NCBI GenBank assembly: GCA_964387565.1
Contig: CAYLYN010000004.1
Coordinates: 1-55,653, forward strand
Length of the DNA stretch: 55,653 bases
Reading direction: 5' to 3'
Origin: an uncultured Rikenellaceae bacterium
Lineage (GTDB): Bacteria > Bacteroidota > Bacteroidia > Bacteroidales > VadinHA17
The position numbers were made by a program, and so were the translations under genes. Below, piece by piece: positions 5,914 to 8,804 of this stretch (position 1 is its first letter; every line of letters starts with the position of its first letter). Below the pieces are notes generated by a model. It searched no databases. It had not been told where the DNA came from and saw only the letters and a list, made by a program, of their open reading frames with translations.

Positions 5914-6948
5914 TCAGAAAAACCTCTTTTTAAAATATAGTGCCACACTTACAAGCAGTATCATAACCGGAACTTCAACAAGCGGTCCTATTACAGTTGT
6001 GAAAGCTTCACCCGAACCTATTCCGAATACTGCTATCGCCACGGCAATGGCAAGCTCAAAATTATTGCTGGCCGCTGTAAAAGACAATGTTGCCGATTGC
6101 TTATAGTTTGCCCCTATTCGCTTGCTTAACAGGAATGATACCATGAACATCACAACAAAATAAATTACCAGGGGAATTGCTATCCTTATAACATCTGTGG
6201 GAATCTTTATTATATACTCTCCTTTAAGTGAAAACATCACAAAAATTGTAAACAAGAGAGCTATTAAGGTCAGGGGGGATATTTTAGGAATGAAACGTGT
6301 ATTATACCATACTTTATTCCTTAATCTTATCAGTGCAAACCTTGTAAGGAATCCTGCAATGAATGGGATACCAAGATAAATGAAAACACTTTTGGCGATC
6401 TGTCCGATTGTTATAGTGGCAACAATGTCGTTTGTTGGCAGACCGAACCATCCGGGCAGGATGGCAATGAAGAAAAATGCATAAACCGGGAAGAAGATCA
6501 CCTGAAAAACCGAATTGAATGCAACCAGTCCGGCAGCATATTCATTGTCTCCCCCTGCCAGCTCATTCCAGACAATTACCATGGCTATACAACGGGCAAG
6601 ACCTATCAGGATAAGTCCGTACATATAGTCCACATTGAATTTCAGGAAGATAACTGCAAGAATGAACATCAGAACCGGTCCTATGATCCAGTTTTGAACC
6701 AGGGAAAGGAGCAGCACCCTGGTATTCCTTAATACATCAGCCAGCTCTTCATATTTTACCTTTGCCAGAGGCGGGTACATCATAAGTATCAGACCTATTG
6801 CAATAGGAATGTTTGTAGTGCCTGATGACATCCCATTCCAGAATTCAGCTATTTCAGGATAGAGCCATCCTGTACCAACACCAATAAACATTGCAAGGAA
6901 TATCCATAAAGTAAGATACCTGTCGGATAATTTTAGTCTGGTTTTCAT
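5914..6948 (-). CDS. acr3: ACR3-family arsenite efflux permease
   Basis: 344 aa, about 10 TM segments. The N-terminus [28 protein letters not shown] and the motifs [11 protein letters not shown] and CIAMV(IV)W are typical of Acr3/ArsB(ACR3). It starts 18 nt after the hgcB stop. Confidence 0.85.
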
Positions 6949-6966
6949 TTGGCTGCTCTTATTACA

Positions 6967-7260
6967 CTAACAACAATCTGATTTTGCACAATCACAGGTC
7001 GGCTCAGTATTCCTGAGTATACCGTTGAGAATACCTGAGGCACAGCCTACTCCTGAATTCACAGATATTGCCCCCACAGGGCAGTTTATTGAACATGCTC
7101 CGCACTCCATGCAATAATCCCTTCTTACAATATGTGCTTTTTTTGCGGTAAGTTCAAACACATCATGAGGACATACCCTGATGCACATTCCGCAGCCATT
7201 ACAGGTACTTTCACATAGGCTGAGCGTAACAACACCGGGGAGATAGACAAGGTCTTTCAT
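6967..7260 (-). CDS. hgcB: HgcB, 2x[4Fe-4S] ferredoxin of the mercury-methylation pair
   Basis: 97 aa. Two CX2CX2CX3CP motifs (CNGCGMCIRVCP, CMECGACSINCP) and a Cys-rich tail ending ...CDCAKSDCC (vicinal C-terminal Cys pair). The ATG lies 7 nt after the hgcA stop. Confidence 0.85.
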   Translation of the reverse strand: MKDLVYLPGVVTLSLCESTCNGCGMCIRVCPHDVFELTAKKAHIVRRDYCMECGACSINCPVGAISVNSGVGCASGILNGILRNTEPTCDCAKSDCC

Positions 7261-7267
7261 CTTTAAT

Positions 7268-8305
7268 TTATATTACTTTCCCTATAATCTGCAGAATGAT
7301 ACCTGCTAAAGCAAAACTTATCTGAACAGGCATGAATAACTTCATCTCCTTTTTTACTCCTGAGAGAGATGTATAGGTTGATGATCCGGTAAAATTCATT
7401 GCTGTGAAGGAGGAGAACGCTCCGAAAAGAAAAAACCATGACAGAATGATCAGCAGATTTTTTTCTGAAAGGGAAGTTATCAGGCAAAGGAGAAAGATCA
7501 CAGTACCTGTAAAAAAACCTTTCAGTGAGAAGTACCGGCCGGGGATATAGGGAAGCAACAATGGTGTTACTACTATGCCTCCGGTATAAGCCAGAAATAC
7601 ATTCAGGAGCGCCGGACCACCTGTTCCCGGAAAGTCTCTGAAAGAAATGCCTTCAGGAGTTATCCCGGATATCATGTAAAGTATTACAAAGGCCCATAAA
7701 AGATAATACTTCCCATACATAAAGTCATTCGGAATCAGCTTAATCCTGTCAGTTAAACCGAATCGTACCTTTCTCATCTCCCTGTCAGCGCGATATTTGT
7801 TACCAATATATTTCCTGATATCAGAAGCCCTTACAGGTCCATAATGTACATTGAATCCCGTTGCTTCCTTAACCTTGTGTGCGGCAACACCTGTGGCTCC
7901 AAGCTGCGGAAGAATCAGCCGCCTGTGATTAACGAGATTTTCAATCGAATCCAACCTGAGCCTGTTAATGAGTTCATCTGTACTAAAAGTTCCTTTGCCG
8001 GCAGCACACCATACATTTACACCTTTAGTGTCAAGAATTAAAATCCAGCCGTCTATCCCTGCAAGATTTTTTCGGAGATGATCAAAGGAGAGTTTATAAT
8101 TGGCTGTCACAAAAACATCGGATGAAGCATCGGGATTTCCAACATAATATAATCCGGGAGCAATTCTGAAATTATTCCTGTTTATCCCCCATCTTACCAT
8201 AACAGCTCCCAGGTAATCAATCGTATTAAGTCTCGATGAAACCTGTCTGATTGTTCTCTCTCCAATTCTATTAGAACCAGATATATAGTTACTTCTCACA
8301 CCCAA
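7268..8305 (-). CDS. hgcA: HgcA, corrinoid protein of the mercury-methylation pair
   Basis: 345 aa. The N-terminal corrinoid-binding domain carries the diagnostic cap-helix motif GVNVWCAAGKG (nt 7994-8017, Cys100). The C-terminal half has 4-5 TM helices. The ORF opens with TTG at 8305; the first ATG (codon 36) would delete conserved sequence. Confidence 0.88.
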   Translation of the reverse strand: MGVRSNYISGSNRIGERTIRQVSSRLNTIDYLGAVMVRWGINRNNFRIAPGLYYVGNPDASSDVFVTANYKLSFDHLRKNLAGIDGWILILDTKGVNVWCAAGKGTFSTDELINRLRLDSIENLVNHRRLILPQLGATGVAAHKVKEATGFNVHYGPVRASDIRKYIGNKYRADREMRKVRFGLTDRIKLIPNDFMYGKYYLLWAFVILYMISGITPEGISFRDFPGTGGPALLNVFLAYTGGIVVTPLLLPYIPGRYFSLKGFFTGTVIFLLCLITSLSEKNLLIILSWFFLFGAFSSFTAMNFTGSSTYTSLSGVKKEMKLFMPVQISFALAGIILQIIGKVI

Positions 8306-8444
8306 TGTTTGTATTCCAGAATATTATTAATTTCTCATTTATTTTGTCTCTGACCTCTATGCTTTTCTTATTGACATTACTTTGTGGGCCTGCTGCCTTT
8401 TTGAAGAATCAATACTTTCTGTTTCGACCATATTTCAAAAAGAT

Positions 8445-8768
8445 TCAGCATTTCACATCAACATTTTTAATCTCACTGAAGAACTCATCGAACAGGCTCA
8501 GATAATCACGGATTTTAGAATTGGAAAGACAATAATTTATCTTCAGACCATCTATTTCTCCTTTGATCAGGCCCAGATCCCTGAGCTCCTTTAAGTGCTG
8601 TGATACAGTAGTTCTTCCAAGTGGCAGATAATCAGAAATATCCCCGGAAATACATGATTTTGTTTCTGCAAGGTATTTCAAGATCGCCAGACGTGCCGGA
8701 TGAGACAGTACCCTGGTAAATTTTGCCAGTGCCTGCAACGATTCGTCAAATTGTTCTGATTTATTCAT
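8445..8768 (-). CDS. arsR: ArsR/SmtB-family metalloregulator
   Basis: 107 aa. Winged-HTH signature LSHPARLAILKYL...SCISGDISDYLPLGRTTVSQHLKELRDLGLI. Cys residues at 39, 80 and the C-terminal residue 107, so there is no canonical CVC site. Same strand as hgcA and 139 nt upstream of it. Confidence 0.85.
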   Translation of the reverse strand: MNKSEQFDESLQALAKFTRVLSHPARLAILKYLAETKSCISGDISDYLPLGRTTVSQHLKELRDLGLIKGEIDGLKINYCLSNSKIRDYLSLFDEFFSEIKNVDVKC

Positions 8769-8784
8769 ATATCAATTACTACTA

Positions 8785-8804
8785 ATGTCGTAAACATACG
8801 ACAT
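8785..8804. promoter_or_regulatory. candidate ArsR operator: perfect 8-4-8 inverted repeat ATGTCGTA-AACA-TACGACAT
   Basis: Read directly from the sequence. It lies 17-36 nt upstream of the arsR ATG (8768). On the coding strand it overlaps TATGTTTA, a near match to the Bacteroidota -7 box TAnnTTTG. Confidence 0.45.

Follow-up and report, generated by a model that had tools for sequence, protein, structure and literature searches.

The native function and the regulation of the gene pair hgcAB are open questions that limit the prediction of methylmercury production. In metagenome-assembled genomes (MAGs), hgcAB has been found flanked by acr3, arsC, arsM, and arsR-like genes (McDaniel et al. 2020, mSystems, PMC7438021, Fig. 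6). Further neighborhoods of hgcAB and ars genes have been described in MAGs (PMC10349881), and acr3 and arsC were reported wherever arsR-like genes precede hgcA (Peterson et al. 2025, PMC11984097, Fig. 4c). The same association has been reviewed in a rice-paddy study, and a link between methylation and arsenic resistance was already hypothesized in these neighborhood papers (PMC7438021, PMC11984097, PMC10349881). In lake metatranscriptomes, the ratio of hgcA to gyrB transcripts was lower with arsR present (PMC11984097). In Pseudodesulfovibrio mercurii ND132, transcription of hgcAB depends on ArsR and responds to arsenic and S-adenosylhomocysteine, and ArsR, hgcAB, and ars genes co-localize in Bacteroidetes and other phyla (Gionfriddo et al. 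2022/2023). Co-transcription of arsR and hgcA has been shown in Pseudodesulfovibrio, and a knockout of hgcAB in ND132 is more sensitive to As(V) but not to As(III). Here, we analyze a locus with the gene order arsR-hgcA-hgcB-acr3 (positions 5914-8804, minus strand) on contig CAYLYN010000004.1 of an uncultured Rikenellaceae bacterium; the whole stretch of 55,653 nucleotides (nt) is referred to as the window.

The layout itself is already known: hgcAB together with arsR, acr3, and arsC was published in 2020, 2023, and 2025, and the public MAG of Bacteroidales bacterium UBA1800 (locus L001) presents the identical gene order, with protein identities to the window of 78/68/80/81% for ArsR/HgcA/HgcB/Acr3. 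The window locus is a minimal, arsC-less form of this arrangement. We consider it probable, at roughly 70%, that it represents a minimal Bacteroidales ars operon in which hgcAB is carried as cargo between the genes of the repressor and of the efflux pump. Three incremental additions to the known linkage, none of them mentioned in the papers that were searched, are the sequence of the operator, the position of the -7 box within it, and its occurrence at arsM operons.

A candidate operator and the operons that share it

All four open reading frames are intact (Table 1). Upstream of arsR, we read a promoter of the Bacteroidota type, TTTG-N19-TATGTTTA, whose -7 box lies within a perfect palindrome. 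The consensus quoted for Bacteroidetes promoters is TTTG / TAnnTTTG (PMC7366714), and the operator sequence contains TATGTTT(G/A), which fits the -7 part of this consensus. Of the 81 loci that bear the operator, 33 have a TTTG element 19-20 nt 5' of the -7 box; promoters of Bacteroidota are degenerate, and often no -33 motif can be detected in them (PMC7366714). In relatives, ATGTCGTATGTTTGCGACAT or near variants are located 13-18 nt before arsR, in some cases as two tandem copies, and of 80 metagenome loci that contain the 20-mer ATGTCGTATGTTTRCGACAT, 76 have arsR at most 130 nt downstream. The palindrome is single-copy in the window, and no second copy was found there before hgcA or acr3 when up to three mismatches were allowed; at this tolerance, at least one match was obtained in 10 of 100 shuffles. 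We regard the palindrome as a conserved candidate operator that overlaps the promoter. When bound to it, ArsR would cover the -7 box, and the predicted 5' untranslated region would be ~16-18 nt long.

Two variants of the operator were observed, TATGTTTG in 64 loci and TATGTTTA in 16 loci as well as in the window (position 8791). The A variant extends the perfect arm from 6 to 8 bp, yet it departs from the G of the -7 consensus. One locus (L027) presents a run of the heptamer GAAATCT instead of the operator upstream of arsR (positions 1-150).

We scanned metagenome contigs with the 20-mer alone, a search that is unbiased for hgcAB, and obtained 80 readable loci (L081-L160), hereafter the operator set. 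In this set, arsR was followed by arsM in 27 loci, typically as arsR-arsC-arsM-acr3 and in some cases with arsN2 and gshAB, and by hgcA in nine loci, typically as arsR-arsC-hgcA-hgcB-acr3. Seven loci presented acr3 with neither arsM nor hgcA, and none presented arsM and hgcA together. The sibling gene products ArsM (351 bits, cutoff 263), ArsN2 (145, cutoff 125), and GshAB (931, cutoff 425) were identified above the cutoffs of their models; ArsC reached 131 bits with the thioredoxin-type model, under its cutoff of 174, and takes its name from its best match together with the gene order. ArsR is about equally similar to the window protein in the two classes (median identity of 65% for arsM loci vs. 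67% for hgcAB loci), and Acr3 is ~76-79% identical in both. Because the same ArsR clade and the same operator head operons free of hgcAB at equal identity, these elements appear to be generic ars control elements: judged by its sequence, ArsR is an ordinary ars repressor of the Bacteroidales group and not a regulator dedicated to hgcAB. Likewise, gene order indicates that generic ars operons of Bacteroidales have a variable slot ahead of acr3, which can hold several alternative cargoes, among them hgcAB.

A strict rule by which hgcAB replaces arsM was ruled out, since the two occur together in one operon at four loci of the genome set, namely L018, L027, L033, and L034. A methyltransferase gene of the window (38697-39497) was considered as a hidden arsM and was rejected, as it gave no match to the ArsM model and no tblastn match. 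In six loci of the operator set (L103, L140, L108, L141, L148, and L160), arsN2 and a bifunctional gshAB for glutathione synthesis are located between arsM and acr3.

The frequency of the linkage was estimated from the best 80 species-level hgcA loci, 71 of which had room downstream. In 26 of these 71 loci, acr3 was found on the same strand within 6 kilobases: directly after hgcB in 16, further downstream in six, and directly upstream of hgcA in four. No ars genes were found near hgcAB in the other 45. The order arsR-arsC-hgcA-hgcB-acr3 was identified in six loci (L003, L004, L006, L008, L016, and L021), and longer versions also carry genes for thioredoxin-like and DsbD-like proteins, an ArsP-type permease, and a rhodanese. 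The acr3 gene of L021 (7287-8316) appears to be split in two overlapping frames, which may reflect a frameshift or an assembly error.

In a second lineage of Bacteroidales (L027, L033, L034, L043, L048, L032, L025, L017, and L028), a pair of genes is located directly 5' of hgcA (for example L033:4954-5947). The first encodes a protein of ~95 aa with an N-terminal cysteine-rich stretch (DCGCEDGCCPPKK) followed by a transmembrane helix and has no match in Pfam or NCBIfam. The second encodes a 233-aa membrane protein similar to DsbD_TM/DsbD_2, with a weak, sub-threshold match to ArsG. This pair may constitute a thiol- or metal-handling accessory to hgcAB.

Table 1. Features of the arsR-hgcA-hgcB-acr3 locus and of its upstream region (window positions)
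Feature	Position	Strand	Description	Basis
-33 element TTTG	8818..8821	-	19 nt 5' of the -7 box	
-7 box TATGTTTA	8791..8798	-	TAnnTTTG with G>A; lies within the operator	
Candidate ArsR operator ATGTCGTA-AACA-TACGACAT	8785..8804	.	perfect 8-4-8 palindrome, 16 nt before the arsR ATG	
arsR	8445..8768	-	107 aa, ArsR/SmtB repressor	Pfam HTH_5 and NCBIfam NF033788
arsR-hgcA spacer	8300..8444	-	145 nt to GTG; AU-rich hairpin, without U-tract, operator, or promoter motif	
hgcA	7268..8299	-	343 aa from GTG 8299 (alternative TTG 8305, 345 aa)	NCBIfam HgcA_corrinoid
hgcA cap-helix motif NVWCAAGK	7994..8017	-	contains the Co-ligand Cys	motif reading and alignment
hgcB	6967..7260	-	97 aa, 2x[4Fe-4S] ferredoxin	NCBIfam HgcB_ferredoxin
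acr3	5914..6948	-	344 aa, arsenite efflux permease	TIGR00832

Gene products and probable extent of the transcript

Family assignments were made with NCBIfam equivalog and subfamily models and their curated cutoffs, which all four proteins exceed. HgcA scored 414.3 bits with NF040863 (HgcA_corrinoid, cutoff 275), and the match covers positions 1-324 of the 325 model positions. With the model of HgcAB-like fusion proteins (NF043039), it reached 200.7 bits, under the cutoff of 285, and with the model of CdhD/ACDS gamma, the corrinoid subunit of acetyl-CoA synthase, 70 bits. The cap-helix motif spans residues 95-102 in the 343-aa numbering, so that its cysteine is residue 98 (residue 100 in the 345-aa numbering), and it is invariant across 15 aligned sequences. 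Residues 43-169 form a corrinoid domain homologous to the gamma subunit of the corrinoid iron-sulfur protein (CFeSP), and the C-terminal half presents five distinct transmembrane-like segments by crude hydropathy (residues 200-339). A sequence match to PDB found no structure of HgcA; the nearest entries are CFeSP gamma subunits, from which the cap-helix cysteine is absent.

HgcB scored 118.3 bits with NF040864 (HgcB_ferredoxin, cutoff 99). It possesses two CX2CX2CX3C motifs, starting at residues 20 and 50, as well as Cys73 and the C-terminal pair Cys96-Cys97; the motif cysteines, Cys73, and the vicinal cysteines are functionally important, as known from mutagenesis of ND132. Acr3 scored 436.3 bits with TIGR00832 (cutoff 282.8) and presents nine transmembrane-like segments together with Cys120 in RCIAMV and Glu324 in PLVEVP, the two residues that are essential in Acr3 mutagenesis. 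Finally, ArsR matched both the winged-helix family PF01022 (HTH_5; 47.4 bits, cutoff 22) and NF033788 (62.7 bits, cutoff 55). Its cysteines are found at positions 39, 80, and 107, the last one being C-terminal, and they are conserved in 28, 29, and 24, respectively, of 29 ArsR proteins linked to hgc genes.

An earlier note, made by reading the sequence, had assigned these four genes, described a membrane domain of four to five helices in HgcA, and set profile scoring of HgcA and HgcB beforehand as a check. The identities hold, with all scores above curated cutoffs and the hallmark residues in place; five helices are counted by crude hydropathy, and at the profile level the low scores of HgcA with the fusion and CdhD-type models speak against a non-methylating paralog. 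The note had also proposed a non-ATG (TTG) start of hgcA. A non-ATG start is retained, but its position likely differs: the database call for the window gene and 14 of 14 aligned close homologs begin at window codon 3, and among the relatives with DNA that was read, the majority have ATG at the codon aligned to GTG 8299. GTG 8299 is therefore a more likely start than TTG 8305. The local start context (A at -3 for TTG) does not discriminate between the two codons.

The gaps between the genes are 145 nt from arsR to hgcA when counted to GTG (139 nt to TTG), 7 nt from hgcA to hgcB, and 18 nt from hgcB to acr3. A scan of sigma-70 promoters and intrinsic terminators gave counts that were not above those of shuffles; its sole terminator call corresponds to the plus-strand reading of the palindrome, and none fell between the four genes. 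A search of the arsR-hgcA and hgcB-acr3 gaps for a TAnnTTTG box together with a -33 element found none. The 18-nt gap was unstructured in a fold test. An AU-rich hairpin of ~16 bp without a U-tract directly follows the arsR stop codon (about 8443-8395, minus strand), and the fold of the arsR-hgcA spacer (z = +0.8) was no better than those of shuffles. Rfam models gave no match across the whole window and thus no sign of a riboswitch or leader RNA.

Because of the common strand, the short gaps, and the lack of any internal terminator-like site or Bacteroidota-type promoter, the sequence is consistent with transcription as one arsR-hgcA-hgcB-acr3 unit, which we consider likely. The spacings given in the earlier note (7, 18, and, to TTG, 139 nt) were reproduced, and so was the perfect palindrome before arsR, which recurs at this position in relatives. 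Its description of hgcAB as built into an arsenite-efflux operon agrees with the presence of this operator, and of ArsR proteins of this clade, at the head of plain arsR-arsC-arsM-acr3 operons, and its proposal of one metalloid-responsive unit is in line with the features just listed.

Proposed regulation and possible role of hgcAB

We propose that the locus is controlled by one Bacteroidota-type promoter whose -7 box is embedded in the 20-bp palindromic operator. A dimer of ArsR on this operator would block the promoter and repress arsR together with the downstream genes. Arsenite would release the repressor by binding to a thiolate site, probably made of Cys39, Cys80, and Cys107, whose thiolates would fit a three-thiolate coordination of As(III). 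Judging from the spacing of the genes, a single arsR-hgcA-hgcB-acr3 transcript would then be made: Acr3 would export As(III), and HgcA, a membrane protein with a Cys-ligated corrinoid, would be co-produced with HgcB, its ferredoxin reductant; the two would methylate Hg(II) where it is available. Co-transcription, induction by arsenite, and any role of HgcAB in relation to arsenic are inferences. The tie of the native role of HgcAB to As(III), as put forward in the earlier note, would be a case of guilt by association, and this hypothesis has already been published and partly tested in ND132.

Several points weigh against this model. The classical CVCDLC site for As(III) (R773 type, helix alpha-3) is absent from ArsR, which presents Cys39 as the single cysteine of this region, and arsenite as its ligand is suggested by the context of the operon. 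Ser41 stands at the position taken as the equivalent of Cys34 of R773. The promoter scan is blind to promoters unlike TAnnTTTG, and the hairpin after arsR may attenuate read-through into hgcA or may be due to chance. Moreover, the closest HgcA homolog (P0002, 70% identity) is encoded outside any ars operon, so the linkage of hgcAB and ars genes is not obligatory. Finally, as of 2020, mercury methylation had not been demonstrated by experiment for any member of the Bacteroidales.

It is possible, if rather unlikely, that hgcAB simply landed by horizontal transfer in a slot that is permissive to recombination, and that its co-expression is incidental, without any functional tie to arsenic. The variable content of the slot (ArsM, ArsN2, GshAB, HgcAB, or nothing) would be compatible with such an origin, as would the patchy distribution of hgcAB in Bacteroidales, where the pair also occurs outside ars operons, and the flanks of the unit, for which no synteny with relatives was seen. 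However, all other cargo genes of the slot are arsenic-related. The linkage also recurs over HgcA identities of 49-70%, in other phyla, and with acr3 on either side of hgcAB, and this recurrence across identities, phyla, and gene orders suggests that it was repeated or maintained. In addition, the operon has the guanine-plus-cytosine content of the window average and no convincing flanking repeats, and therefore shows no sign of recent insertion.

A stronger functional claim would be that HgcAB itself confers resistance to arsenic or other metalloids: like ArsM, but by means of a corrinoid, it would transform As(III) or another metalloid into a product that is then lost or exported, and Hg methylation would be a side reaction. 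We consider this improbable. In its favor, the slot before acr3 in the operator set holds the arsenic-linked ArsM, ArsN2, or GshAB, or else HgcAB. The linkage of acr3 and hgcAB is present in several phyla in more than one gene order, and the hgcAB knockout of ND132 is more sensitive to As(V). A more specific version, in which HgcAB would be an arsenite-switched functional alternative to ArsM that works with Acr3 and methylates mercury as a by-product, is allowed because under one operator and one ArsR clade the slot holds ArsM (27 loci) or HgcAB (nine loci) and never both in the operator set; this version appears equally doubtful. However, arsM and hgcAB do occur in one operon in the four loci of the genome set named above, and the ND132 mutant is not more sensitive to As(III). 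Moreover, ars genes are absent near hgcAB at 45 of 71 loci, as well as near the gene of P0002.

The locus might also be expressed as several transcripts, with ArsR controlling either itself or itself and hgcAB, and with hgcAB and/or acr3 under promoters of their own that were not recognized. The 145-nt arsR-hgcA spacer with its hairpin after the arsR stop and the degeneracy of Bacteroidota promoters would leave room for such a scheme. Neither the arsR-hgcA nor the hgcB-acr3 gap contains a recognizable promoter, however, and the latter is too small for one of known architecture. The distance from arsR to hgcA is only ~60 nt in two other loci (L001 and L005), and co-transcription of these genes is known in Pseudodesulfovibrio, all of which makes separate transcripts unlikely to a considerable degree. 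Finally, the absence of the canonical CVCDLC site and the response of ND132 ArsR2 to S-adenosylhomocysteine could suggest that ArsR senses another signal (S-adenosylhomocysteine, Hg(II), Sb(III), or a thiol-redox cue), but this seems improbable as well, given that arsC-arsM-acr3 operons also begin with this operator and an ArsR of this clade, and that As(III) could be coordinated by the thiolates of the three conserved cysteines.

Under the model of an ars operon with hgcAB as cargo, the hgcAB pair of Bacteroidales is subject to an ordinary ars repressor with its operator and occupies a slot that holds arsM in sibling operons. Should this be true in vivo, exposure to arsenic, and not to mercury, would set the expression of hgcAB in these abundant, fermentative, polysaccharide-degrading putative methylators.

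Host, neighboring genes, and comparison with described systems

The best matches of HgcA, HgcB, ArsR, and Acr3 are all found in MAGs of Bacteroidales, and the named close matches of the glycerol kinase of the window (42499-43989) are limited to Bacteroidetes/Bacteroidales MAGs (78-80% identity). A Shine-Dalgarno core was detected upstream of one of 44 window genes vs. a background of 10.6%, and the upstream regions are A-rich, which fits the translation signals described for Bacteroidetes (PMC7366714). The window encodes carbohydrate enzymes (GH5, GHL6/GH42-like, and rhamnosidase-like proteins, two sulfatases, and an oligogalacturonate lyase) as well as functions for uronates and sugar acids (altronate and dihydroxy-acid-type dehydratases and KdgT and GntP permeases). 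The sequence supports a host that is an anaerobic, polysaccharide-degrading member of the Bacteroidales, and the Bacteroidota polysaccharide degrader of the earlier note is recognizable in its GH5 enzyme, sulfatases, and uronate catabolism. Polysaccharide-fermenting Bacteroidales with hgcA were already described in 2020.

Several neighboring genes deserve mention. Divergent from arsR, across an AT-rich region of 476 nt, lies an ATP-grasp gene similar to D-Ala-D-Ala ligases (9245-10249, plus strand). The possibility that it belongs to the regulon as a GshAB-like gene was considered and rejected, since it gave only sub-threshold Ddl-like matches and a match to GshAB of 29% over 113 aa. Just past this gene, a cluster for a NiFe hydrogenase of the Mvh/Hdr type (10318-18605, plus strand) encodes a HycI-like maturation protease, MvhD/FlpD, the small and large NiFe subunits, two HdrA-like proteins with flavin adenine dinucleotide and iron-sulfur domains, and an iron-sulfur protein. 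The two sulfatase genes are located at 31277-34213. The gene at 34230-36644 (minus strand) encodes an 804-aa protein in which a SulP sulfate permease is fused to a STAS domain and to a beta-carbonic anhydrase. A 510-aa open reading frame (51830-53362, minus strand) presents the unusual pairing of an N-terminal NapC/NirT tetraheme cytochrome with an FGE-sulfatase (sulfatase-modifying factor-like) domain. Another, of 482 aa and with a TTG start (53482-54930, plus strand), combines inosine-uridine nucleoside hydrolase and FmdE domains.

Compared with described systems, the locus resembles the published MAG neighborhoods in that hgcAB stands beside arsR-like genes and acr3, and it differs in its HgcA, to which the closest retrieved homologs are at most 70% identical. 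Its modules have two further relatives. The CFeSP gamma subunits (AcsC/CdhD; PDB 2h9a, 4c1n, and 4djd) share the homologous corrinoid domain but possess neither the membrane domain nor the cap-helix cysteine (tsvltawaagk, where HgcA reads vnvwcaagkg). The HgcAB-like fusion proteins (NF043039) contain the same corrinoid and ferredoxin modules, whereas hgcA and hgcB are separate genes in the window.

With arsR2-hgcAB of P. mercurii ND132, the locus shares an ArsR/SmtB regulator directly upstream on the same strand. ArsR2 possesses Cys47/49/86/88 and occurs only with hgcAB, with no ars structural genes nearby, whereas the ArsR of the window has Cys39/80/107, belongs to a generic clade, and is accompanied by acr3; the two regulators are set apart here by the described cysteine pattern and by the hgcAB-free ars operons that the clade of the window protein also heads. 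Finally, the arsR-arsC-arsM-acr3 operons of Bacteroidales (L081, L088, L113, and others) end in acr3 like the window locus (~76% identity) and have the 20-bp operator and the ArsR clade (median identity of 65%) in common with it. Their cargo consists of ArsM, ArsN2, or GshAB, whereas the window locus carries HgcAB as its cargo and is devoid of arsC.

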